This document shows positions 1 through 38,233 of a stretch of 38,233 bases of DNA, in pieces (positions within the stretch are counted from its first letter, which is position 1; each line of letters starts with the position of its first letter). The stretch lies in IMG/VR virus record IMGVR_UViG_3300020042_008980, positions 1 through 38,233 of that record, one strand, 5' to 3'. The notes under the pieces are model-generated. The model had not been told where the DNA came from. It was given only the letters and a program-made list of their open reading frames with translations, and did no database searches. A program made the position numbers and the translations under genes. Source of the stretch: a virus. Lineage: Duplodnaviria > Caudoviricetes.

Positions 1-130
1 CCAAGAGAAATACGCAAAGGCCGTAATTGATGCGATTAAAGAGCAGAAATGGCGAAAGATTGACTATCCGCTAGATAAAATTAGCTGGGAGTCGGTGGCA
101 AAAGATTGGGTAGAGAAGTTTAGTCTATGA
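1..130 (+). CDS. C-terminal fragment of the glycosyltransferase (same as the end of 34940..37141)
   Basis: Encodes QEKYAKAVIDAIKEQKWRKIDYPLDKISWESVAKDWVEKFSL*, identical to the GT C-terminus. ATGA overlap with the MTase. Confidence 0.9.
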   Translation, partial: QEKYAKAVIDAIKEQKWRKIDYPLDKISWESVAKDWVEKFSL

Positions 131-1216
131 AGTTACTTCTAGGTAATTGCCTAGAGGTTTTAAAAACACTTCCAGACAATTCAATTGATTCAGTAGTTAG
201 CGATCCTCCCTATGGGCTAAAATTCATGGGTAAAAAGTGGGATTACGATGTACCAAGCGTTGAAACTTGGCGAGAAGTTATGCGAGTTCTTAAGCCCGGT
301 GGCCACGCACTTATAGCGTGTGGCACTCGCACTCAGCATCGCATGGCCTTGAACATTGAAGATGCTGGCTTTGAGATAAGAGATGTTATCACTTGGCTTT
401 ACGGCTCCGGCTTTCCGAAAAGTTTAGATATTTCAAAAGCGATTGATAAGAGCGCTGGCGCTGAGAGAGAAGTGATTGGAAAAAAATCTACTTATCGTGA
501 GCCACAAACTCCTAATGGATGGGACTGTACTAAAAGAGCAGAGTTTGAAACCGCACCCTCAACCGATGCCGCAAAAGAATGGCAAGGATGGGGAACTGCA
601 CTTAAGCCAGCATGTGAGTTTTGGACTCTCGCTCGCAAGCCGTTATCTGAATCTACCGTTGCAAAGAACGTATTGAAGTGGGGAGTTGGCGGTATAAATG
701 TTGATGGGTGTCGAATTGCAAGCGATGAGCTGACTCCAAGAAAGAACAAGGGGGGTAGGCTAGAAACTAATGTGGGTGAGTTTGGAATAAACGACAAAGA
801 CTTCATCGCTACTCCCTCACCACTTGGCCGCTTCCCAGCGAATCTAATCTTAGACGAGCAAGCTGCTTTTGATTTGGATGCGCAGAGTGGAATAAGCAAA
901 AGCGTAAACTCTCAAAGAAATAATGCAGCATCAAAAAACTCTTGTATGAGTGGTGACAACTTGGGTCATGTATCGTTTGGGCATAACGACTCAGGCGGAG
1001 CATCTCGTTTCTTTTACTGCGCGAAAGCAAGTAAGAGCGAGCGCAACGCTGGGCTTGAGGGTATGCCTAATAGGATATTGGCGAGAAGTGGCGGTGCTGC
1101 TGCTGCGGCAGAACGTGGCGAATCTTATGATATAGGCGATGGTGCTTTTAATCGAACTATAGAATGTAAGAATCATCACCCTACAGTTAAGCCAATCAAA
1201 CTCATGGAATATCTAT
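1..1216. repeat. Imperfect terminal repeat, copy 1 (3' end of glycosyltransferase plus most of the MTase gene)
   Basis: ccaagagaaatacgcaaaggccgtaattg... at position 1 recurs at 37012. Homology continues to atggaatatctat (1204-1216 vs 38221-38233). Offset is 37011 at the start and 37017 at the end. Confidence 0.97.
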
Positions 1217-1416
1217 GTCGATTAATTACACCGCCTAGCGGCACCGTTTTAGACCCTTTTATGGGTTCTGGCTCTACAGGCGTAGCTGCTAAATCACTTG
1301 GCTTTAATTTTGTCGGTATTGAGCTAGATAAAGAGTATTTTGACATTGCAAATGCACGTATTAACGGCAAAATACGGCAAAATATTGAACCAGAACAAGT
1401 TAGTTCTATAATATAA
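127..1416 (+). CDS. Beta-class N6-adenine/N4-cytosine DNA methyltransferase, allele A
   Basis: N-terminal catalytic DPPY, C-terminal SAM-binding DPFMGSGSTG, HPTVKP motif; long central insert with four variable segments. Confidence 0.93.
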   Translation: MKLLLGNCLEVLKTLPDNSIDSVVSDPPYGLKFMGKKWDYDVPSVETWREVMRVLKPGGHALIACGTRTQHRMALNIEDAGFEIRDVITWLYGSGFPKSLDISKAIDKSAGAEREVIGKKSTYREPQTPNGWDCTKRAEFETAPSTDAAKEWQGWGTALKPACEFWTLARKPLSESTVAKNVLKWGVGGINVDGCRIASDELTPRKNKGGRLETNVGEFGINDKDFIATPSPLGRFPANLILDEQAAFDLDAQSGISKSVNSQRNNAASKNSCMSGDNLGHVSFGHNDSGGASRFFYCAKASKSERNAGLEGMPNRILARSGGAAAAAERGESYDIGDGAFNRTIECKNHHPTVKPIKLMEYLCRLITPPSGTVLDPFMGSGSTGVAAKSLGFNFVGIELDKEYFDIANARINGKIRQNIEPEQVSSII

Positions 1417-1635: not shown

Positions 1636-2298
1636 ATGAATTTAGCAGAACTAAGAGAGCTAACCGTTACCTACTTAGATGATTTGCAAATGGGCTACTT
1701 CACCGAGGCCCAACTTAATAGCTGGCTAAACAATGCTCAAAGAAAAGTACAGCGTATTCTAATCAATGAAAAGCAAAACTTTTATTTAAAGTGCGTACAA
1801 ACTGAAACAGTAGAAAACCAGTGTAATTTAGTGTTGCCTTCTGATTTTATGATGGCACATAGAATTGTATTGGTGCTTAGTGGAACATTCCCTAACGAAA
1901 ACATTTCTACACTTGCTCCCATTACATTGAATGAGCAGGATTTGATAAACCCCACCCCTTCTACTCCTGCAGCTTATTATTTTAAAAGAAACAACCTTTG
2001 TTTAGCTCCAATACCTAACCAAGCCTATGCGCTTCGCTTAACTTATTCCTACGAAGTCACAGACATGACAAATGATAACTCTGTGCCTGATGTTCCAGAA
2101 AGATACCATGAACTTTTATCAATCTTTGCGGCTCTAGATGGTTTTGTTAAAGACGATAGAGACAACACTTATCTAATGAAGCTAGCAGATAGCTATATCA
2201 AGGATATGAAGTCTGAGGCTCAACAAAGACAAGAGCAAGCAAGTAGAAGTGTAGTTAGAACAGGTTCGGACGATTGGGGCATGGGGGATATGTGGTGA
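1636..2298 (+). CDS. Head-tail adaptor / tail tubular protein A-like
   Basis: N-terminal MNLAELR...LNSWLNNAQRKV helix pattern, size, and position before a nozzle-sized gene. Confidence 0.65.
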   Translation: MNLAELRELTVTYLDDLQMGYFTEAQLNSWLNNAQRKVQRILINEKQNFYLKCVQTETVENQCNLVLPSDFMMAHRIVLVLSGTFPNENISTLAPITLNEQDLINPTPSTPAAYYFKRNNLCLAPIPNQAYALRLTYSYEVTDMTNDNSVPDVPERYHELLSIFAALDGFVKDDRDNTYLMKLADSYIKDMKSEAQQRQEQASRSVVRTGSDDWGMGDMW

Positions 2299-2299
2299 T

Positions 2300-4033
2300 A
2301 TGAGCCCTAACCCTAAGTTTCCTAGAGAAAGCTATGAAAATTTTGGTGGAATAAACGAGAAGGCATCGCTTTACCTAACAGGAGACAATGAGTGCTTATC
2401 TCTATTGAATTTGGATTTTAATAAACCGGGTTCTTTGAGTTCCATGCCTGGGAGTGCTCTTTTTATTGGCGCCACTGTTGCCGGACGCATCAGTGGCCTT
2501 TATGAATATACAAAGCTAAGCGGAGCTAGTCACATAATTTTTACCGCTGGCAACATTGCTTATTCTAATTCTGGTAACACGACTATTCCTTTTAGAATTG
2601 GGATAAACCCCGATGCTCTTTTTGATTTTGTAACTTTTGTAGATACGCTCTTTATGAGCAATGGCTACCAGTTTTTAAAATATAACGACATAACGGCTAC
2701 CAAATTTAGCTGTCCTGCCGGAACTACTCTCACTACAGGGCTTGGTGTAGCTGCCGTTGGATTAAGTGGAACCTATCAATATAGCTACGGCTATTTAACT
2801 ACAAGTGGATATTTAAGCGGAACAGGTGATGCGGCTACATTAGCTGTTGCCGGAACCCAAGCTATTTTAAGTGGGTTTACTTCACCTAGCGACTACGGAG
2901 TCACTGCAATTGTGATTTATAGAAGTAGTGCAGGAGGGGCAGACCTATTCCTATATGATTACATGACACCAACAGGGGCTACCTATGTAGATTCGGGAAG
3001 CTTGTCTTTGCAGACATTCCCAGAACCCGATAGTGTGTTTTTTACACTAGCCCCAAGATACCTAGACCTTTATCAAAACACTTTCTTTATGCTTGGATCC
3101 ACACAATATCCTTCTGCCTATTATTGGTCTGAAGTAGGGCAACCTGAGACTATTCTACCCGATAGTAATGCTGAAGTTAGAACTAATGATGGCGATAGGA
3201 TTACCGGAAGCAAGGCCTATGGGAATGGAATATACATTTTCAAGGTAAATTCATTTGTGAAAGTTGTAGGAAGTGATTCAAGTAATTTTCAGCAATTGGA
3301 TGTCAGTGCGGAATACGGAAGCCTTAGCAATAGGGCGGTTGTTATCTATAACGACATTATGCTTTTCTTAGATAAGAAGGGAATTTGTAGATACAATGGG
3401 GCTACTCCTGAGATTATATCTACAAAAATTGAAAGCACTTTTTTAGAGATGAACATAGATGCAGCGATAGATAATGCTGTAGGTGTTCATTATAAATATC
3501 GGAACCAAATATGGTGGGGTATTCCTACAAATGGGAGCACCGTAAACAACACTATTGTTATTTATGATTATTTAGCGGAAAGCTGGACGGTGAGAGAAGG
3601 TTTTCTACCTAGCTCTATGGCATTTTTAGCGGGGCCGTATGACAGAGAAACGATATTTTATGGTGGTTATTCTGGCACTATTCACTATGTCAGTGCTTCT
3701 TTATGCTCTGATAACCTTTCTGGGATGACTTATGCCATGCAAAGTAAGTTTTATACAATGGGTGGCAGGTCAGAAACTATGCAATATCGTAGGTTGTTTA
3801 TCGACACCGATCCTATTCAGGGAGCGACTATTCCACTCACTATCAATTTTAGAAAAGATGAACAGGACGCAATTGTCTTAACAAGGCAGATATATTTTGA
3901 TCAATTTCAAACAAGAATAGATTTTGGAATACCAGCTAAGAGTTTAAGCGTGGAACTTGTAACAAGTGGTGCAAGTTATCCGATAAGAATAAATGGCTTT
4001 ACTTTAGAAGCTAGATTGCAGAGAAAAGTATGA
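2300..4033 (+). CDS. Tail nozzle / DNA stabilisation protein (P22 gp10 or T7 tubular B-like)
   Basis: 577 aa, beta-rich; begins NFGGIN; propeller-like segments (GSLSNRAVV, FLDKKGI, IVIYDY); podovirus synteny. Confidence 0.65.
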   Translation: MSPNPKFPRESYENFGGINEKASLYLTGDNECLSLLNLDFNKPGSLSSMPGSALFIGATVAGRISGLYEYTKLSGASHIIFTAGNIAYSNSGNTTIPFRIGINPDALFDFVTFVDTLFMSNGYQFLKYNDITATKFSCPAGTTLTTGLGVAAVGLSGTYQYSYGYLTTSGYLSGTGDAATLAVAGTQAILSGFTSPSDYGVTAIVIYRSSAGGADLFLYDYMTPTGATYVDSGSLSLQTFPEPDSVFFTLAPRYLDLYQNTFFMLGSTQYPSAYYWSEVGQPETILPDSNAEVRTNDGDRITGSKAYGNGIYIFKVNSFVKVVGSDSSNFQQLDVSAEYGSLSNRAVVIYNDIMLFLDKKGICRYNGATPEIISTKIESTFLEMNIDAAIDNAVGVHYKYRNQIWWGIPTNGSTVNNTIVIYDYLAESWTVREGFLPSSMAFLAGPYDRETIFYGGYSGTIHYVSASLCSDNLSGMTYAMQSKFYTMGGRSETMQYRRLFIDTDPIQGATIPLTINFRKDEQDAIVLTRQIYFDQFQTRIDFGIPAKSLSVELVTSGASYPIRINGFTLEARLQRKV

Positions 4034-12415: not shown

Positions 12416-12666
12416 GACATACCTCCCTTTTTACAGAAGTCTTCTAGCTTGGTTATTAAGGATATAAGAGAAGCATCCGGCAGACGCCTAACCGTATAGG
12501 CTTCATATTGCCAATCTTTAATAACTTTGCGGATGCTTTCTCTAAGGCCGCTCATGGCTTCAGTAGATTTTGCACTAAAGCCTTTTTGTTTATAGTTATC
12601 TTTCTCTTTGGTGTAGGTGGATGTAATAGCTCTACCATCCTTCCAATTTGATTTATCTTTGTTCAT
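12412..12666 (-). CDS. Hypothetical protein
   Basis: Start MNKDK overlaps the MTase stop (ATGA). Confidence 0.55.
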   Translation of the reverse strand: MNKDKSNWKDGRAITSTYTKEKDNYKQKGFSAKSTEAMSGLRESIRKVIKDWQYEAYTVRRLPDASLISLITKLEDFCKKGGMS

Positions 12667-13499
12667 TTTAATCCTGCCAATCTCATAAAGGCTTCTTTTG
12701 CTTGCATTGGAACCACTGCATTCCCAAGGCATTTAAGTCTGTCCATTCTATTGGAAATCCCATTAGCCACTCGACCCATAGAGGGTTCAATGTCCCACAT
12801 TCCTTCGTTTCCTTGACCGCTGTTGATAATCCAACTTGTTTTCCTATTCTGATGCGTCTTTGCACCGCTGGGTCGCTCATATTCCCTCGATCCCTGTTGT
12901 CGCTCGCACAAGGAGTCGGCCAAAGATTCTTTCTCGCCATCATTGGCAGAGACATTCGTATTTTGGATCCTTCGCTCATAGATTGATTTGTTCCGTATTC
13001 CGTAGCTGTAGGAGTGGGCAAGTAGGAACCATCGTTGTCTGAGGTGTGGGGCTCCCATCTCAGCGGCAGATACAATCGTCCACCTACAATCATACCGAAG
13101 CGAAGTGAATTCTGTGCAAACGGACTCAAGGCCTCGAACAGTGATAGCTGGGACGTTTTCCAAGAACACGAATCGGGGTCGTAATTCCCTACATAGTCGG
13201 ATGATTTCATAAAACAATCCGCTTCGCTCTCCTGCCAAGCCCGCGCGAGCTCCCGCAGCACTAATGTCTTGGCATGGAAAACCTCCATAAATAATTTCTG
13301 TTCGTGGGAGTACATGTCCCTTAAGAGTTCTGATGTCGTCCCATAATGGAGCTCGCGGTAACTCATTCTCAACCATTCTGGATAACAAAACAGATTGAGC
13401 GAATCGGTCGTTTTCACAGTAAGCGATTGGTCTAACCCATTCTGAGAGTGCGATGCTGAGGCCGCCAATTCCACTAAACAAATCCAAGCCATTTAACAT
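12663..13499 (-). CDS. C5-cytosine DNA methyltransferase, alpha-type subunit (motifs I-VIII and X, no IX)
   Basis: DLFSGIGG (I), GFPCQ (IV), ENV (VI), HLRQRWF (VIII), LGNAV (X). Confidence 0.92.
   Translation of the reverse strand: MLNGLDLFSGIGGLSIALSEWVRPIAYCENDRFAQSVLLSRMVENELPRAPLWDDIRTLKGHVLPRTEIIYGGFPCQDISAAGARAGLAGERSGLFYEIIRLCRELRPRFVFLENVPAITVRGLESVCTEFTSLRYDCRWTIVSAAEMGAPHLRQRWFLLAHSYSYGIRNKSIYERRIQNTNVSANDGEKESLADSLCERQQGSREYERPSGAKTHQNRKTSWIINSGQGNEGMWDIEPSMGRVANGISNRMDRLKCLGNAVVPMQAKEAFMRLAGLK
12683..13210 (-). CDS. Overprinted beta-type subunit of the C5 MTase (target-recognition region plus motif IX); start uncertain, frame open to 13492
   Basis: Same strand, different frame; two PTPxA modules and LNPLWVEWLMGFP (motif IX-like). 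Confidence 0.75.
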   Translation of the reverse strand: MKSSDYVGNYDPDSCSWKTSQLSLFEALSPFAQNSLRFGMIVGGRLYLPLRWEPHTSDNDGSYLPTPTATEYGTNQSMSEGSKIRMSLPMMARKNLWPTPCASDNRDRGNMSDPAVQRRIRIGKQVGLSTAVKETKECGTLNPLWVEWLMGFPIEWTDLNALGMQWFQCKQKKPL

Positions 13500-13648
13500 G
13501 TAACCTCGCACCAAAAATCGAATAGCTTCCAATCCTCAGATTGCAACACAATCCAATAAACCATTTGTGGGTGCTTAAGACTAAAACACACCCCATCCCA
13601 TTTACACTCGTATAATTCATTTGTTAGTTGATGTTTGAATAGCGTCAT
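13493..13648 (-). CDS. Small hypothetical protein (51 aa), absent from the ORF track
   Basis: AAGGA SD; MTLFKHQLTNELYECKWDG...; fills the gap between neighbouring genes. Confidence 0.5.
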   Translation of the reverse strand: MTLFKHQLTNELYECKWDGVCFSLKHPQMVYWIVLQSEDWKLFDFWCEVTC

Positions 13649-15445: not shown

Positions 15446-16333
15446 TTAAAATCTTGGATTGATAGAATTTTTATAACGCGAATCTTTATTGTAAGTGTCA
15501 TTCATCGCTGCAATTGAATCTTTTTCCGGAACATGCGAGTACCTTTTGATAGTCTCGCTACACATAGCCAGCATCTTTTTTACAAAAGTCTCTGCTATTC
15601 CTTTTGAAAGCATATAACTGCACGCTGTATGCCTTAGGTCATGAAAACGTCCCTTTACCTTAGCCACCCTCTTTAATCTTCGCCACGGCTCATTATTGCT
15701 TACTAAGTGCATGTCCTTATCATCATGCTTCGGAAATAAATAAGGGCCTGTAGACCTAGCGAATCTAGCCTTTAAAATACGTAGCACTGTCCTGTTACAA
15801 CAAAAGCTTCTATCTGTTGTGCTCTTAACCTTTTGTGCGTATGGAGGCAGGTAAATCCACCCTGTTGTGAAGTTTATGTATTCCCACTTAAACCCCAAAA
15901 TCTCAGCTTTTCGCATTCCCATCGTTAAAGCCATATAGATTTGTAGCCTTAAGTTCCAACTATTGTGAAAATTATTCGACCTGTTACGTGAAAACCACAA
16001 AAGCCTTATTATTTCTTCACGTGAATAGATTTTGCCCCTGCCAAGGGTGGCGTCATAAACCTCTAGCTCAAAGACTGGTATTGGCTCCCCATGCTTTCTA
16101 GCTAGCTTCAAAATCGCTTTAATGTGTTTCTTGTGGTCTGCAATCTTAAACCCTGCCTGTTTCTTAGCATGTAGATAATCCTCAAAATGTAGCTCTTTGA
16201 TTTTGGCTATCTGCTTCTTACCGAAATGCGGATTTAGATGTTTGTTGAGTAGATAATAGGCTTGGAGATAAGACGCTTGGGAGCATGTCTTTTTATAGGC
16301 CAAATAGAGGTCAGCATAGTGTGAAAACTTCAT
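15446..16333 (-). CDS. int: Tyrosine recombinase / integrase
   Basis: TMGMRKAEI (catalytic R), FHDLRHT (HxxR), TIKRYSH (catalytic Y); GGAGG SD before ATG 16333. Confidence 0.9.
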   Translation of the reverse strand: MKFSHYADLYLAYKKTCSQASYLQAYYLLNKHLNPHFGKKQIAKIKELHFEDYLHAKKQAGFKIADHKKHIKAILKLARKHGEPIPVFELEVYDATLGRGKIYSREEIIRLLWFSRNRSNNFHNSWNLRLQIYMALTMGMRKAEILGFKWEYINFTTGWIYLPPYAQKVKSTTDRSFCCNRTVLRILKARFARSTGPYLFPKHDDKDMHLVSNNEPWRRLKRVAKVKGRFHDLRHTACSYMLSKGIAETFVKKMLAMCSETIKRYSHVPEKDSIAAMNDTYNKDSRYKNSINPRF

Positions 16334-16434
16334 AGCCGAGCCTCCAATTAGCTCGTTTAGAGTTTTGCGCACTGTCGCAATCACTCAATTTTGATAGGTA
16401 CCTTAACGTAAGGCGTCAACTTAAAGCATCTTAA

Positions 16435-17067
16435 CTAGGCTTCAACACCCCTTCTAGCGACCTCTAGGCCGTATTCATGCGCTAACTTGTATTTACCTAA
16501 ATTAGCCGATGTCCACTTCGTAGCCTTTTGTGTCTTTTGCCAGCTTATTAGCTTATCTAACCAAGTTAAGAACATTTCCGTATGGTTATTTGCAGCTTGC
16601 TTCCACGTTAAGCCATCAAATGTAGGTACGCTCTTAGTGAGTGCTTCATGTATCTTTTCGTCTAAAAAAGCATCCTCATTATTTGAGCTAGTAGCCGCTT
16701 TTCTTACTACAGGACTATCAGCTAACCTCCCCCCCTCATCCAATTCACTGGCAGCGAATGCGGTTCCGTAACCACACATTAAAAGCGCTCGACCGATAGC
16801 CCCTGTTTCGCTTTTTTCTATATAATCCCCAAATCCCTTTATGTTTTCTTGTTTATGGGCAGTAGCTACTATTTTCCCACTAGGATCTTTAATAGTAGCC
16901 TTGGCCACGGCCAAATCATTGGTCATGGTCACAAACTCAGTCTCGATTGACCAGTCGGGCTTTTCTTCACGAAACCACACCATGCGCTGTTGAACTCCCA
17001 TATAGTCCTTACCTTTAAGGTTCATTATAGGGAGTATTGTGCCTTTAGACGTTTTGAATTGATTCAT
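16435..17067 (-). CDS. Putative single-strand annealing protein (Rad52/Sak-like)
   Basis: KGKDY...R...F, AVAKATI, EKSETGAIGRAL..CGYG pattern. Confidence 0.6.
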   Translation of the reverse strand: MNQFKTSKGTILPIMNLKGKDYMGVQQRMVWFREEKPDWSIETEFVTMTNDLAVAKATIKDPSGKIVATAHKQENIKGFGDYIEKSETGAIGRALLMCGYGTAFAASELDEGGRLADSPVVRKAATSSNNEDAFLDEKIHEALTKSVPTFDGLTWKQAANNHTEMFLTWLDKLISWQKTQKATKWTSANLGKYKLAHEYGLEVARRGVEA

Positions 17068-18399: not shown

Positions 18400-18415
18400 T
18401 TATAGACGCACCGCA

Positions 18416-18432
18416 TAATATAGTTTATATTA
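18416..18432. promoter_or_regulatory. TAATATA-N3-TATATTA palindrome (perfect copies also at 26092 and 28168)
   Basis: Read directly from the sequence; the copies I found lie in or at the edge of intergenic gaps. Confidence 0.65.
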
Positions 18433-18689: not shown

Positions 18690-18786
18690 CCACCCACCCC
18701 ATTGCGTATATTATCTTTTATATTATACATTCTAATATAGAGCCGAACAATCATCAGACGCGATTGCATGAACTCGGGAGGTACTA

Positions 18787-19212
18787 TTGTCTAAAGAGAA
18801 GAAGCCTCACGGTAGGCCATCCAAATATAAACCTGAATATGATGAAATGCTCATTCAACACCTAGCTGATGGCTATACCTTTGAATCGTTTTTAAGCAAA
18901 CTCCCAGACGTTAGCAGTGACGATACTCTCTATGAATGGCTTAAAGTTCATCCAACTTTTTCCGACGCCAAAAAGAAAGGCGTGGCTCTTGGCCGTTACT
19001 TTTGGGAACAAGTAGGTAAAGAAGGCATCACTGGTAAAAATACTAGAGTGAATTTCACAGGGTGGATTTTCATGATGAAAAATAGATACAAATGGCACGA
19101 TAACGTGCAAATCCAAAACATTGCCGATCCCACAGACAAATCCAAAGATACCCAAATCCAAAAACTCACCGAACAGCTAACAGCTATTAAATCCATGTCC
19201 GATGTCGAATGA
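18787..19212 (+). CDS. terS: Terminase small subunit
   Basis: GRPSKYKPEY, TLYEWLKVHPTFSDA, WIFMMKNRYKW motifs; GGGAGG SD with TTG start. Confidence 0.85.
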   Translation: MSKEKKPHGRPSKYKPEYDEMLIQHLADGYTFESFLSKLPDVSSDDTLYEWLKVHPTFSDAKKKGVALGRYFWEQVGKEGITGKNTRVNFTGWIFMMKNRYKWHDNVQIQNIADPTDKSKDTQIQKLTEQLTAIKSMSDVE

Positions 19213-19939
19213 ACTTAGCAAAGATGACGTCATTACTGCCTACAAAAGAGCTATTCAGAATCTCTATAAAGATTCGCTCTATCGTACATGCAAAGGCCTG
19301 CTAGGTTACAAAGACGTCAACACCACCACACATGCTGGCACTATTAAAGCCCTGCAATCTGATAGCCCTCGTAAGCTAATCATCCTGCCACGTGGATGCT
19401 TAAAGTCCTCTATCTGCACTGTCGCCTATCCTATTTGGAAGCTTTTGGTTAATCCTAACCTACGTATACTCATCGACTCTGAGCTCTACACCAACTCAAC
19501 TACCTACCTCCGTGAGATTAAAGCCCACTTAGAGAGCCCCACGTTTACTGATGTATTTGGGGAGTTTAAAACTAAGACTGATTGGACACAGGGGACTATC
19601 ACTATCGCTCAGCGTTCACACCCTTATAAGGAAAGTTCCATAACTTGTGGGGGTGTTGGAACCGTAAAGGTAGGCCAGCACTACGACATAATAATAGGCG
19701 ATGACTACAACTCTAATAAAAACTCAGACACCCCCGAAGGGCTAGAGAAGGTGCTTCGGCACTTCAAATATAACCAATCAATCCTAGAACCCAATGGAAC
19801 CTACATCATCGTATGTACGCGCTATGCATCACGTGACTGTGCCGGATATGTTCTTGATGAAATGCTCGGCCTTAAAGAAGAAAAGCTACAAGTTTCAGGC
19901 GTCTACGACACCGACACCAACACCACAGGCCTATTATAA
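19202..19939 (+). CDS. terL: Terminase large subunit, ATPase domain only
   Basis: Walker A LPRGCLKSS, Walker B IIIGDD, coupling motif IVCTRY; stops at 245 aa. Confidence 0.85.
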   Translation: MSNELSKDDVITAYKRAIQNLYKDSLYRTCKGLLGYKDVNTTTHAGTIKALQSDSPRKLIILPRGCLKSSICTVAYPIWKLLVNPNLRILIDSELYTNSTTYLREIKAHLESPTFTDVFGEFKTKTDWTQGTITIAQRSHPYKESSITCGGVGTVKVGQHYDIIIGDDYNSNKNSDTPEGLEKVLRHFKYNQSILEPNGTYIIVCTRYASRDCAGYVLDEMLGLKEEKLQVSGVYDTDTNTTGLL

Positions 19940-19979
19940 TATAAAGCATATTGCACTTTATCCGCATAAATCATAATAT
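19937..19979 (+). promoter_or_regulatory. Putative late promoter, near-duplicate of 34873-34915
   Basis: TAATATAAA...TTGCAC-tttatccgcataaatca-TAATAT. Confidence 0.55.
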
Positions 19980-24342: not shown

Positions 24343-24774
24343 ATGACGCAAAATAAAACTCAGGTGGTGTTTACTAAGACCCACGCTATTGTCCTAGAAA
24401 ACAACTCTAGAAAGCTTAAGCATGGCTACGCTGTTTTAACTAATCCTAATTTTTTAGTAGGTGAAACTCCTAATAAATATTGGAAAATAGGTAAAAACAA
24501 TTCAGTTACTCCAATGAATCCCTTTGAGATGATTGAGCGTGATAAAGCAATCGATGCTTTAGGAATAGATACCGATTGCGACATTCTACAACCAGTCACA
24601 GAAAAAGGCGCTCCTGCTACTAAGCCTGTAATCCTACGATTAACTAATCCTTATTTTGCTCCTATTAAAGCTGATAAGGTTCCAGAAAAAACACAAAACA
24701 AGCTAGATTTAATCAATTTTATACAATTGCTTGTATTAGTTGGGGTGCTACTAGCTTTGGTATTTAAGCGATGA
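24343..24774 (+). CDS. Hypothetical protein with C-terminal TM anchor
   Basis: GAGG SD; FIQLLVLVGVLLALVF; ATGA-coupled to the nuclease gene. Confidence 0.65.
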   Translation: MTQNKTQVVFTKTHAIVLENNSRKLKHGYAVLTNPNFLVGETPNKYWKIGKNNSVTPMNPFEMIERDKAIDALGIDTDCDILQPVTEKGAPATKPVILRLTNPYFAPIKADKVPEKTQNKLDLINFIQLLVLVGVLLALVFKR

Positions 24775-25565
24775 AATGGGATGTAATCATAGAGAAAGCC
24801 ATACGCGATGATGGCTCGCTATTCTTTCCCGAAAAGCTAACCAAAGAGTTTCTACTTAACGTAAGAAAGTCTCAAGGTAGCTACATCTTTGCCAACCAGT
24901 ATATGAATCAAATCATCCCCGAGGATGAGAAGAAATTCAGAAAAGAATGGTTCCGCTACTACACCACCGCACCCGAAGGATGCTTTAACTTTGGCTTTAT
25001 TGACCCTGCTATATCTCAAAGAAAAGAGAGCGATTGGACGGCCCTTGTAATTGTCTCAGTAGACGAAGAGGGCCATTGGTGGGTGCGCATGGCATCACGT
25101 GGCAAACTCACCCCTACCGAAATTGTTAGCTTGGCTTTTAACGCAACAGAGAAATGGAACCTAAAGGCTATAGGCATTGAAAACATAGCCTACCAAGAAA
25201 GCTTACTGTATATGATAAAAGATGAGGGTAAACGTAGGGGACACTACTTACCTGCAGTAGGCATAGGAAAAGAGGATAACAGGTCAAAAGACACTCGCAT
25301 ACTTGGTCTAGTCCCTAGATTTGAATGGGGTAGAATAAGTCTAAGAGAAGGTTTATTTGATCTAGAAACTGAATTAAACTTTTTCCCAAGGGGTACAAAA
25401 GATATTATAGATGCCCTAGCACGCATAGAGCAGATAGCTTATGCACCACAAAGAAAGAGAGCGACGCATGAAATTCCCGACCCGCAATCCTCAGAATACG
25501 AATCCTACATCATCAAACAACTCATTAAACGAAATGGCAGAGCTAGTGACTCCGACGAAGAATAA
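24771..25565 (+). CDS. terL: Terminase large subunit, nuclease (RNase H-like) domain only
   Basis: DGSLFFPE...FANQYMN linker, FIDPA...SDWTA, IGIENIAYQ, FPRGTKDIIDAL. Confidence 0.85.
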   Translation: MKWDVIIEKAIRDDGSLFFPEKLTKEFLLNVRKSQGSYIFANQYMNQIIPEDEKKFRKEWFRYYTTAPEGCFNFGFIDPAISQRKESDWTALVIVSVDEEGHWWVRMASRGKLTPTEIVSLAFNATEKWNLKAIGIENIAYQESLLYMIKDEGKRRGHYLPAVGIGKEDNRSKDTRILGLVPRFEWGRISLREGLFDLETELNFFPRGTKDIIDALARIEQIAYAPQRKRATHEIPDPQSSEYESYIIKQLIKRNGRASDSDEE

Positions 25566-26057: not shown

Positions 26058-26112
26058 TAAACATTATTCCCATTGCGTATAATATGAATAGTAATATAAA
26101 TTATATTATTGA

Positions 26113-28152: not shown

Positions 28153-28210
28153 AAATATTAGTTAAGATAATATAGTTTATATTATTTACTATGAGGGGTT
28201 TTGTATTAAC

Positions 28211-34915: not shown

Positions 34916-34939
34916 TGTTCTTTGAGGAGACGCGACTCA

Positions 34940-37141
34940 ATGCAAAGACCAAGTCTAGGGCTTATGCTTATCTGTAAGGATGAGCTACACAATTTTCCAC
35001 AGTTATTAGAATCAGTAGAGGGGTGTGTTGACGAAGTTTTCGTAGCTGACACTGGCTCAACTGATGGCACCTTAGAATATCTACAAAAATTAGCAGTAGA
35101 GGGTTACAAAGGAATGAAGGTGCATCTACATCAATTTGTTTGGTGTGATGATTTTGGTGCCGCTCGTAACTTCATCTTTGAAAAAGTCACTACAGACTAC
35201 GTGCTTTGGTTAGACTTAGATGACGTTCTACAAAACAAAGAAGCATTCATACAATGGCGTAACGTAGCTATGGAACTTTCTGATTACTGGCTCGCTACTT
35301 ATCACTACGGAAGTGATGGCGCTGGTAAGCCTGTTTGCTCATTCGCTCGTGAAAGAGTGCTCAAAGTAGATAAAGGCTTTAAGTGGGGCTACCCCATTCA
35401 TGAGGGTATTTTACCTAAAAGCCCACACACCAAAGACATTAGAATTAACTACATAGGCACTTGGTCAGTTAAACACAAGCGCACTATGGATGAATTGCAA
35501 GGCGATAGAGGTAGAAACCTTAGGATACTTGAGGGGCTTAAAAATAAAGACGCTCGCATGAAGTATTATTACGGTAAAGAATTGTTTGATGCTGGTAAAC
35601 CAGTAGATGCTATTCGCTGGCTTATGGAGGCAGTGAGTGACCCTAAGTGTGAAAACCATGACAGACTTCTAGGCCTTCAATATGCAACCTATGCGTACAT
35701 GGCCTGTAATCAATTTGAACAAGCCATACAGATAGCCCACCAAGGTTTACAGCTAGACGTAAATAGAGCGGAGTTTTGGGTGGCTATTGGAGATTCCTAC
35801 ATAAAGATGAATCAACCAATGAAAGCTATACCTGCTTTTTCAGCGGCTAAAAACTGCAGCTATCAGACACCACAAAGTAACGGTGGAATGGCCGGAATGG
35901 TGTTCTTATCTGAGGCTTGTTATACGAGCTACCCTCGCGAACAAATGGCTAGAATATTCGCAAACTATGGTGTCATGGACAAGGCACTATCTGAGGCCAC
36001 AGAAGCCACCAACATGGGAAGTGTTGAGGCAGCTAAGCTACTAGAAGAAATTACAAGAATATCTAATGTGAGTGCGGTTAAAGCTGCAGATACCCTAGAG
36101 CAAACTGAGGACATTGTAATCTCCGCACCCCCGGGCGCGCAAATGTATGAGTGGGATTGGGATATTGCTAAAGAGCGTGGAATAGGCGGAAGCGAGACTG
36201 CAGCGGTGCAGATGGCTTATCACTTGCATAAGCTAACAGGCCGCAAGGTTAAAGTGTTCAATGGCCGCTCAGTGGATAAGGTATGCGAAGGTGTTGAGTA
36301 CATCTCAAATACTAAGATAAATGAGTATTGCAGTAAGTATTTACCTAAAGTTCACATAGCGTGGCGGCACACTATTCAAGTCACTCCTGCCCCCACTAAA
36401 GTATGGTCACATGATCTTATAACCCCCGGCATAGACCGTCTGTCTCCCAATCAAGAACTAATGTGTCTTTCCTCATTTCACAAAGACTATGCGATGGCTA
36501 TGCAGGGGGTAACTGCAGATAAAATATGGGTGACTAGAAACGGTATAGACCCCAAGAGATTTGAAGGTAAAAAGCTAGATAAAGTCTATGGGAAAGTCAT
36601 GTTTCCTAGCTCGCCTGATAGGGGCCTAGACCAAGCCCTACTCATAATGGATATGGTGGTGAAAGAGATACCTGAAGCCACGCTAGATGTCTTTTACGGC
36701 ACAGATAACATGCGAAAAATGGGCATGACCGCACAAGCAGAGAAAATAGAAGCTGAATTGAGGGCTCGTCCCTACGTTAAGTATCACGGCAATGTGCAAC
36801 AGGATGTTTTGGCCGATCACTTTATGCAATCTGAAGTGTGGTTATACCCTGCTCACTTTATAGAAACTTTCTGCATCACTGCGTTAGAATCTATGGCGAG
36901 TAAGTGCTATCCGGTAGCTACGGCTATTGGAGCCTTAAAGAATACTATCGGGCAGTTTTCAGAACTTGGAATGGCCGATTTGTTCCATGAAAGAGCCGAT
37001 AACGTAGCTAACCAAGAGAAATACGCAAAGGCCGTAATTGATGCCATCAAAGAGCAGAAATGGCGAAAGATTGACTATCCGCTAGATAAAATTAGCTGGG
37101 AGTCGGTGGCAAAAGATTGGGTAGAGAAGTTTAGTCTATGA
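34940..37141 (+). CDS. Fused glycosyltransferase: GT2 (GT-A) + TPR + GT4-like (GT-B)
   Basis: LICKDE, DTGSTDGT, WCDDFGAARN, WLDLDD, IHE (GT2); TPR-like helices; GIGGSET, RNGID, SSPDRGL, ETFCITALESMA (GT-B). Confidence 0.9.
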   Translation: MQRPSLGLMLICKDELHNFPQLLESVEGCVDEVFVADTGSTDGTLEYLQKLAVEGYKGMKVHLHQFVWCDDFGAARNFIFEKVTTDYVLWLDLDDVLQNKEAFIQWRNVAMELSDYWLATYHYGSDGAGKPVCSFARERVLKVDKGFKWGYPIHEGILPKSPHTKDIRINYIGTWSVKHKRTMDELQGDRGRNLRILEGLKNKDARMKYYYGKELFDAGKPVDAIRWLMEAVSDPKCENHDRLLGLQYATYAYMACNQFEQAIQIAHQGLQLDVNRAEFWVAIGDSYIKMNQPMKAIPAFSAAKNCSYQTPQSNGGMAGMVFLSEACYTSYPREQMARIFANYGVMDKALSEATEATNMGSVEAAKLLEEITRISNVSAVKAADTLEQTEDIVISAPPGAQMYEWDWDIAKERGIGGSETAAVQMAYHLHKLTGRKVKVFNGRSVDKVCEGVEYISNTKINEYCSKYLPKVHIAWRHTIQVTPAPTKVWSHDLITPGIDRLSPNQELMCLSSFHKDYAMAMQGVTADKIWVTRNGIDPKRFEGKKLDKVYGKVMFPSSPDRGLDQALLIMDMVVKEIPEATLDVFYGTDNMRKMGMTAQAEKIEAELRARPYVKYHGNVQQDVLADHFMQSEVWLYPAHFIETFCITALESMASKCYPVATAIGALKNTIGQFSELGMADLFHERADNVANQEKYAKAVIDAIKEQKWRKIDYPLDKISWESVAKDWVEKFSL

Positions 37142-38233
37142 AATTACTTCTAGGTAATTGCCTAGAGGTTTTAAAAACACTTCCAGACAATTCAATAGAT
37201 GCGGTTGTAACAGATCCACCTTATGGATTAAAATTCATGGGCAAGAAGTGGGATTATGATGTTCCAAGCGTTGAAACTTGGCGAGAAGTCATGCGTGTTC
37301 TTAAGCATGGCGGCCACGCACTCATCGCGTGTGGCACTCGCACTCAGCATAGAATGGCTGTGAATATAGAAGACGCAGGCTTTGAGATACGTGATGTTAT
37401 CACTTGGTTATATGGGAGTGGGTTTCCAAAAAGCTTAGATATTTCAAAAGCGATTGATAAGAGTGCTGGCGCTGAGAGAGAAGTTATTGGCATAGGTAAT
37501 CGGCATAATTCTAAAGAGTTTGGTGGAGAAAAATACGGAGAATTTGCAGGCGGTATTCCACCTATCACAGCACCCTCAACCGATGAAGCAAAAGAATGGC
37601 AAGGATGGGGCACGGCCCTTAAGCCAGCGTGTGAGTTCTGGACGTTAGCCCGCAAGCCATTATCTGAATCTACCGTTGCAAAGAACGTATTGAAGTGGGG
37701 AGTTGGTGGAATAAACGTTGATGGTTGTAGGGTGAAGACAACTAGCAAAGATATAGAGGGTATGCTTAGAACAAAAGGTACCAATATAAAATCAGGAAAA
37801 CTTGTAGGCGGCATAGGTGATTATACGCCGCCAGCGCCTAGTAATTTAGGCCGCTTTCCAGCGAATCTAATCTTAGACGAGCAAGCTGCTTTTGATTTGG
37901 ATGCGCAGAGTGGGATTAGTAAGGGCGGAAAACTATCCTTAAATAGCGAGAGTGGACGAACGGCAATCTCGACACGAGCGCACAATGAAAGACAGCCAAA
38001 CTTATCCGATAGTGTATGTAACTATGGCGACTCAGGCGGCGCATCTCGTTTCTTCTACTGCGCGAAAGCAAGTAAAAGCGAGCGCAACGCTGGGCTTGAG
38101 GGTATGCCGGAAAAAGAATCTGGGGTTAAAAATGATAGCGGTCGGGGGTTTTCCGAAAGTGACCCTTATAAGAAAATCACTAACCAAAATTTCCACCCTA
38201 CAGTTAAACCCATCAAACTTATGGAATATCTAT
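37012..38233. repeat. Imperfect terminal repeat, copy 2
   Basis: Homologous to 1-1216, with many synonymous differences and four non-homologous segments. Confidence 0.97.
37138..38233 (+). CDS. Beta-class N6A/N4C DNA methyltransferase, allele B (runs off the window end; absent from the ORF track)
   Basis: Manual translation is open throughout: MKLLLGNC...TDPPYG...GFPKS...GWGTALKPA...GRFPAN...DSGGASRFFY...HPTVKPIKLMEYL. Confidence 0.92.
   Translation, partial: MKLLLGNCLEVLKTLPDNSIDAVVTDPPYGLKFMGKKWDYDVPSVETWREVMRVLKHGGHALIACGTRTQHRMAVNIEDAGFEIRDVITWLYGSGFPKSLDISKAIDKSAGAEREVIGIGNRHNSKEFGGEKYGEFAGGIPPITAPSTDEAKEWQGWGTALKPACEFWTLARKPLSESTVAKNVLKWGVGGINVDGCRVKTTSKDIEGMLRTKGTNIKSGKLVGGIGDYTPPAPSNLGRFPANLILDEQAAFDLDAQSGISKGGKLSLNSESGRTAISTRAHNERQPNLSDSVCNYGDSGGASRFFYCAKASKSERNAGLEGMPEKESGVKNDSGRGFSESDPYKKITNQNFHPTVKPIKLMEYL

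Follow-up and report, generated by a model that had tools for sequence, protein, structure and literature searches.

Exchangeable cassettes in four slots of a phage DNA amino-methyltransferase family: candidate determinants of methylation specificity

Multispecific C5 (cytosine-5) methylases of Bacillus phages protect against several restriction-modification systems, as set out in the accessible portions of two reports (PMC12707154, PMC8936443), and in wild phage populations the variable islands contain methylases more often than any other genes, a pattern treated as gene-level turnover in the excerpt available (PMC7468147). For the actinophage methylases Dorothy_75, PopTart_63 and Taj_79, the consulted sections of two papers (Gosselin et al., 2023, PMC9957025; Arsenault et al., 2025, PMC11855218) describe genes that are transferred horizontally, recombine internally and diverge to a surprising degree, with a probable anti-restriction role. 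The mode of DNA recognition has been described for CcrM and M.BceJIV, where a segment termed loop-45 wedges into the DNA (PMC6787082, PMC11380664, both in part), and the available part of the M.BceJIV report names R203, H205 and Q207 as base-reading residues (PMC11380664); they lie 11, 9 and 7 residues before the HPT motif. Here, we describe a gene of the actinophage methylase family in a virus of the Caudoviricetes (Duplodnaviria), IMG/VR record IMGVR_UViG_3300020042_008980, whose single contig of 38,233 nucleotides (nt) is the whole genome and also the whole stretch of DNA analysed, hereafter the window; portal, major head, terminase, endolysin and integrase-like genes are present. The methylase stands at both ends of the window, as allele A near the start and as allele B, which is incomplete, at the end (Table 1). 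Identity to A is about 45% for Taj gp79 and Mantra gp64 and 42-50% over the named family members, with the same conserved blocks in the same order.

We propose that the gene encodes a phage orphan DNA amino-methyltransferase of the beta class, in which a constant scaffold would carry four slots for discrete cassettes of about 30 residues, present in many combinations across the family. The cassettes would set which DNA sequences the enzyme methylates, and the outcome would be a retunable anti-restriction cover, by analogy with known phage orphan methylases. Allele A carries its motifs in the order DPPY (residues 26-29), HPTVKP (351-356) and DPFMGSG (376-382), which is the beta-class succession of motif IV, target recognition domain (TRD) region and motifs X and I. 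Comparison of A with B upheld the description given in the original prediction: the five constant blocks differ by exactly six residues (4+1+0+0+1), the four segments between them are unrelated, with lengths that are all multiples of three (69/75, 108/114, 87/105 and 102/78 nt) and translations as first quoted, and the slot boundaries are sharp in the alignment. Identity within the slots is 0.12-0.26 against 0.98 for the backbone, a divergence that is not due to chance. The idea that the two alleles are one gene with four cassettes swapped did not survive, as B is not A with four recent swaps: in the constant blocks 82 of 723 nt differ, with pS (differences per synonymous site) at 0.415 and pN (per nonsynonymous site) at 0.027, and this 41% silent-site divergence makes A and B old alleles in a near-identical context.

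The slot architecture extends to the family as a whole, which is large, with 8000 of 8000 scored candidates and 1620 records in cultured phages, 459 of them covering at least 80% of A. Our input of 356 sequences (218 proteins and 138 open reading frames (ORFs) from 159 loci) gave 289 that could be parsed on the constant motifs, 260 of them unique. These homologs hold 1040 slot cores, 891 of which are 20-44 residues long and 99 shorter than 5 residues, with only 10 in the range 5-19; two slots are filled in 9 proteins, three in 88 and four in 163, so that 97 of the 260 have one or two slots empty. Alleles were compared in 149 of the 260 proteins, those with all four cores at 15-60 residues, giving 11,026 pairs, and a score of at least 60 was taken as a shared allele; the tail of within-slot scores lies far above a shuffle null, whose maximum was 48 in 40,000 draws. 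An allele is shared in 595 of the 11,026 pairs, in exactly one slot in 582 of these, and with the A and B allele clusters removed the share of one-slot cases is 150 of 156. Even where backbones are at least 95% identical, 33 of 44 pairs share no slot. Six of the eight cassettes of A and B recur elsewhere, with only one protein sharing two with either allele, and the metagenomic set contains 14 allele cycles, every one involving slot 4. The view that the slots hold discrete, exchangeable alleles is thus borne out at family level by core lengths, one-slot sharing and the spread of alleles over backbones. Cassettes of different slots are seldom alike, with 23 of 312,904 cross-slot pairs scoring at least 55 (null of 40,000 draws), all short cores in about five motif families, and no universal cassette motif was found across the slots, the modest aromatic-glycine enrichment being confined to slots 2 and 3. 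Slots may also be multiplied: 18 of the 218 proteins contain a second slot module, with the module of slots 2 and 3 present twice in 16 and partial repeats in 2, and one locus, L111, carries two full-length genes in tandem (556-1830 and 1839-3230), whose scaffolds are near-identical but whose cassettes differ in every slot.

Finished genomes of cultured phages give the same picture. We hand-picked 21 mycobacteriophage genes, 15 of cluster-E type (14 labelled Kostyavirus, with flanks 97-100% identical) and 6 from Cheoctovirus. The cluster-E-type scaffolds are nearly identical, with alternative alleles in slots 1-3 and a short, almost constant slot 4. Of 24 comparisons between cassettes common to both genera, 21 show no more than 0-2 nt of difference. 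For slots 1 and 3, all four combinations of two alleles at each, a four-gamete set, occur in TeardropMSU, Buck, Girafales and Batiatus, and one further set involves slots 1 and 2. Empty slots are likewise found in culture, Contagion being without slot 2 and Lilpickle without slot 1. Because these are finished genomes with cross-genus cassettes and four-gamete sets, the reassortment is not an artefact of assembly.

Conservation of the alleles bears on whether the cassettes have a function at all. Slot 1 of A and its counterpart in homolog L003 are identical at 22 of 22 residues, 8 of which belong to the search pattern, with pS at 0.81. For slot 4 of B, pS is 0.87 and pN 0.20 overall, or 0.90 and 0.30 outside the searched motif, and when the core was sought in viral contigs, 18 of 18 pattern matches fell in slot 4, just before HPTVKP. 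Over 87 allele clusters, the best-kept residues are G, W, R, Y, P and N, and the least kept Q, V, I and E. The cassettes could instead be tolerated, near-neutral loops, the mosaic being a by-product of frequent recombination to which inteins and homing endonucleases invading these genes contribute. Invasion by intein, LAGLIDADG and hidden HNH elements, accompanied by within-gene recombination, is indeed documented in the consulted parts of PMC9957025 and PMC11855218, some homologs bear long S/T-rich inserts at slots 2 and 4, and alleles seen only once are in the majority (143 of 254 in slot 2). Protein sequences are nevertheless kept while silent sites saturate, with pN far below pS, which argues against neutral loops; intermediate core lengths are almost absent, and the slot-4 allele of B persists on backbones only 62-84% identical. 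We regard this explanation as highly improbable; discrete lengths and alleles conserved at the protein level likewise weigh against the continuum of neutrally drifting loops that the original prediction had named as part of its refutation. One homolog with the slot-4 allele of B, P0135, is named by its source as coming from a Pseudobdellovibrionaceae metagenome-assembled genome, a weak hint as to host.

Where the slots lie on the fold is consistent with a role in DNA recognition. The structure model of A (pLDDT 81.8, pTM 0.80) places slots 1, 3 and 4 on two-strand stems, slot 2 being poorly predicted, and its top structural matches are CcrM (6PBD; Z 24.4, root-mean-square deviation (rmsd) 3.4, 230 residues aligned) and M.BceJIV (8URK; Z 24.1, rmsd 3.4, 227 aligned), a result that does not distinguish N6-methyladenine (m6A) from N4-methylcytosine chemistry. 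In a hidden Markov model (HMM) alignment to both enzymes, slot 1 lies between strands 83-91 and 163-170, the position of loop-45, with the constant GFPKS block as the wedge tip. The positions of R203, H205 and Q207 of M.BceJIV would fall inside slot 4 of A, in the register of the HMM alignment. Slots 2 and 3 fill the TRD region of A. The loop after DPPY, with which CcrM reads three bases, is here both short and constant. Judged from these alignments, slots 1 and 4 would sit in the minor-groove loops (loop-45 and loop-6E/6F) and slots 2 and 3 in the major-groove arm of the TRD. In Bench (L200, 301-1725) a helix-turn-helix (HTH) domain in the slot-1 arm exceeds the Pfam cut-off and in DrDrey (L192, 301-1782) one falls below it, while inserts in the slot-1 arm of P0060, P0155 and P0186 that look HTH-like by eye gave no Pfam HTH match. 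Separately, Cys-rich, zinc-ribbon-like cassettes occur in slots 1 and 4 (11 cores, in P0042, P0071, P0099, P0193, L020, L021, L107, L111, L129, L137 and L154), and long in-frame inserts rich in S, T and I, resembling hidden-frame elements of the ShiLan type, lie at slots 2 and 4 or after GWGTALKP in P0017, P0020, P0043, P0057, P0058, P0081, P0102, P0122, L012, L090 and L098.

On balance, we consider it rather likely that the cassettes set methylation specificity and serve anti-restriction, and several observations weigh against this reading and the free reassortment it draws on. Taken by themselves, the 15 cluster-E-type phages contain no four-gamete set, slots 2 and 3 yield none either, and the metagenomic set lacks allele cycles among slots 1-3. 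Two-slot sharing exceeds the expectation under independence (for slots 1 and 2, 5 observed against 0.2), so that linkage between slots is weak, not absent; of the proposed independent reassortment, the reassortment stands and the full independence does not. The ranking of homologs by their likeness to A or B overstates how often A and B alleles are shared, and some allele groups intergrade, as in a slot-3 cluster of 30. In the models, the cassettes have medium to low confidence, lower in B, where a clear stem is seen for slot 1 only; slot 2 is not net positive; and the HTH could be autoregulatory, as in enzymes of the M.SsoII type. Characterised prophage m6A methylases, moreover, can be promiscuous (PMC3526280 and PMC7544214, as excerpted).

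The last point belongs to a rather unlikely alternative, in which the enzyme has low specificity, like M.EcoGII or M.CsaIII, and the cassettes are functional by tuning general DNA affinity or by varying the surface to escape host sensors or inhibitors. Discrete, conserved, reassorting alleles are equally predicted by such an enzyme, the cassettes are rich in G, S, N and K and poorly structured in the models, and any slot can be empty. It sits less well with the location of all four slots in segments that read bases in CcrM or M.BceJIV and with the tightly held lengths and preferential retention of R, N and aromatic residues; nor did a host sensor for the Dorothy_75 / Taj_79 family turn up in the literature searched. 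If the cassettes do set specificity, their use could tentatively be additive, one motif per cassette, or, which we think doubtful, composite, several cassettes defining one motif. The additive form is modestly favoured over the composite one because any slot can be empty and because slot modules or whole genes are duplicated with different cassettes. In its fullest form, again only tentatively, the enzyme may be a naturally programmable, multispecific adenine or N4-cytosine methyltransferase in which each cassette independently directs methylation at a motif of its own, with phages from those of mycobacteria to those of uncultured aquatic hosts drawing on a shared pool of hundreds of cassettes to build up their anti-restriction cover.

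Cassettes would be exchanged when co-infecting or resident phages recombine homologously through the constant blocks, with no dedicated recombinase. The internal constant blocks measure 45-165 nt and contain stretches of 20-56 nt over which A and B are identical. A self-BLAST of the window finds only A-B matches and no direct repeats flanking the slots. Nor were silent donor cassettes seen beside the gene: there is no separate partial copy, and two GRFPAN-type matches occur at 3 of 191 loci, one being the tandem pair of L111. A diversity-generating retroelement was rejected, with no reverse transcriptase among the 46 of 68 ORFs scanned and with slots that are non-homologous and of unequal length, and so was a shufflon or other set of invertible cassettes, as none of the 23 inverted pairs brackets a slot. 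It had been stated beforehand that neither a reverse transcriptase nor a dedicated invertase is visible; the first part holds for the ORFs scanned. A tyrosine recombinase is present at 15446-16384, 14 kb away, but nothing ties it to the slots. The label of single-strand annealing protein attached to the ORF at 16435 was not confirmed. This ORF (16435-17067, minus strand) has no Pfam or NCBIfam match and falls in PHROGs families of unknown function; its look-alikes in the Atlas, mostly in viruses, carry PF27148 (Slr1353_N), a family that resembles a double-stranded-RNA-binding domain.

How A and B come to lie in one contig is a separate matter. The only repeat in the self-BLAST pairs 1-1216 with 37012-38233, and since the homology starts upstream of the methylase, in the end of the glycosyltransferase gene, the contig ends overlap. 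A and B are very probably two strains' alleles of one accessory locus, merged by assembly at the overlapping ends of a circular phage contig, and probably not two genes of one genome; the contig would be one circle plus a second version of the methylase site. In a relative, L190, the glycosyltransferase is followed directly by the head-tail adaptor gene with no methylase between them, and because both neighbours are adjacent there, the methylase is an accessory gene at one site; L190 is the sole relative found by the glycosyltransferase search, being the same contig in both collections. A quite improbable alternative, which concerns the arrangement only, has A and B on one molecule, in a true two-copy phage or in two related prophages in tandem. 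The two tandem copies of L111 with their different cassettes, the integrase-like gene and the lack of an exact overlap between the contig ends would all fit such a molecule, but the stretch from A to B looks like the gene set of a single phage, the end of the upstream gene is duplicated together with the methylase, L190 has a single insertion site, and end-to-start joining leaves B stopping without a motif for binding S-adenosylmethionine (SAM). Two methylase copies are also rare in relatives, found at 1 of 200 loci, and 325 phage records gave 328 places. The exact constant-block pattern of the window matched 0 viral stretches, and a search with the adaptor gene found no close strain. The idea of an assembler k-mer signature at the start of the contig was dismissed: the 33 identical bases there precede still longer identical runs, of 94 and 53, and only 13 are shared at the other end.

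Table 1. Methylase alleles, their slots and the adjoining genes in the window, with allele mates given over the number for the slot (aa, amino acids)
Feature	Position	Strand	Evidence and remarks
Allele A, complete 429-aa beta-class amino-methyltransferase	127..1416	+	PF01555 E 1e-33; phrog_67
Allele B, first 365 codons of the same gene	37138..38233	+	Cut by contig end before SAM-binding FxGxG motif
A slot 1, aa 119-141, inside loop-45-equivalent arm, predicted two-strand stem	481..549	+	12 allele mates/228
A slot 2, aa 197-232, within TRD region, modelled with low confidence	715..822	+	0 allele mates/253
A slot 3, aa 259-287, TRD region, predicted stem	901..987	+	15 allele mates/224
A slot 4, aa 315-348, directly before HPTVKP, loop-6E/6F equivalent	1069..1170	+	4 allele mates/207
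B slot 1, 25 aa	37492..37566	+	2 allele mates/228
B slot 2, 38 aa	37732..37845	+	2 allele mates/253
B slot 3, 35 aa	37924..38028	+	0 allele mates/224
B slot 4, 26 aa, widespread conserved allele	38110..38187	+	46 allele mates/207, backbones 62-84% identical
Second copy of glycosyltransferase gene 3′ end	1..126	+	Matches 37012-37137, 2 differences/126 nt; marks contig-end overlap
GT2-TPR-GT1 glycosyltransferase, upstream neighbour of methylase locus	34922..37141	+	Profile matches
Head-tail adaptor gene, downstream neighbour of methylase locus	1636..2298	+	PF24175

Other features of the window stand apart from the methylase. On the minus strand, an ORF for a C5 methyltransferase (12663-13532; PF00145) and a 269-residue ORF in another frame (12683-13492; phrog_1008, also a DNA methyltransferase) overlap almost end to end, an arrangement reminiscent of dual-frame C5 enzymes made of two subunits, such as M.EcoHK31I. 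The large terminase subunit is split into an ATPase half (19202-19939) and a nuclease half (24771-25565), matching positions 294-465 and 466-711 of phrog_38, with about 4.8 kb of fibre-like genes between them. Over positions 1-37011, no 4-mer palindromes are depleted more strongly than GATC and GTAC (observed/expected 0.58 and 0.62), which hints at host restriction pressure. Related AT-rich intergenic elements lie at gene-block boundaries, at 1407-1433 (right after allele A), 18415-18432, 18698-18741, 19935-19961, 26069-26112 and 28167-28184, and are possibly promoters.

The family and its within-gene recombination are already published, and the slot form is apparently undescribed. In the accessible text on Dorothy_75 and Taj_79, the evidence for recombination comes from intein and ShiLan inserts, and neither slots nor allele pools are described (PMC9957025); a term search of that text returned none of 'variable', 'loop' and 'target recognition'. 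No description of slot architecture or of the activity of any family member was found in the literature searched, with subscription journals, REBASE and the supplements of PMC9957025 (alignments, Fig. S2) outside the search. One consequence of the slots is that whole-gene trees of the family mix non-homologous segments. Another is practical, as near-isogenic cultured mycobacteriophages that differ in single slots make the specificity question testable now; if the cassettes do set specificity, the sequences would directly link short peptides to DNA motifs and supply a modular methylase for research.

Several known systems share parts of this architecture. CcrM and M.BceJIV, like A, have loop-45, loop-6E/6F and a TRD, the elements through which both recognize DNA, but they have a single fixed motif and short loops, whereas A has about 180 additional residues in loop-45 and the TRD region, and its loop after DPPY is short and constant. 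M.EcoGII, M.CsaIII and M.BceSVII are, like A and B, orphan enzymes with a proposed anti-restriction role; they are prophage-borne and promiscuous, and a cassette architecture is not mentioned in the parts of the sources available. The domain movement (DoMo) of Helicobacter pylori Type I S and Type IIG proteins likewise swaps segments at conserved flanks, with changes of copy number and with some sequences at two positions, and there, in the portion consulted, x/y repeats flank the whole TRDs of a restriction system (PMC3077401). The present family, unlike DoMo, has no repeats within the gene, shows cross-slot likeness in short cores only, exchanges cassettes of about 30 residues and is a phage orphan enzyme. 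In the C5 enzymes of Bacillus phages (SPR, phi3T, H2 and phiBssHII), one phage enzyme also carries several short variable modules in varying number. A and B match PF01555 and not PF00145, which places them outside the C5 class: the Bacillus enzymes have TRDs that are mostly in tandem and proven to be additive, whereas A and B belong to the DPPY amino class, with slots split by long constant blocks. Were the multispecific reading true, the family would be to amino-methyltransferases what these Bacillus phage proteins are to C5 enzymes, but at a far greater scale.

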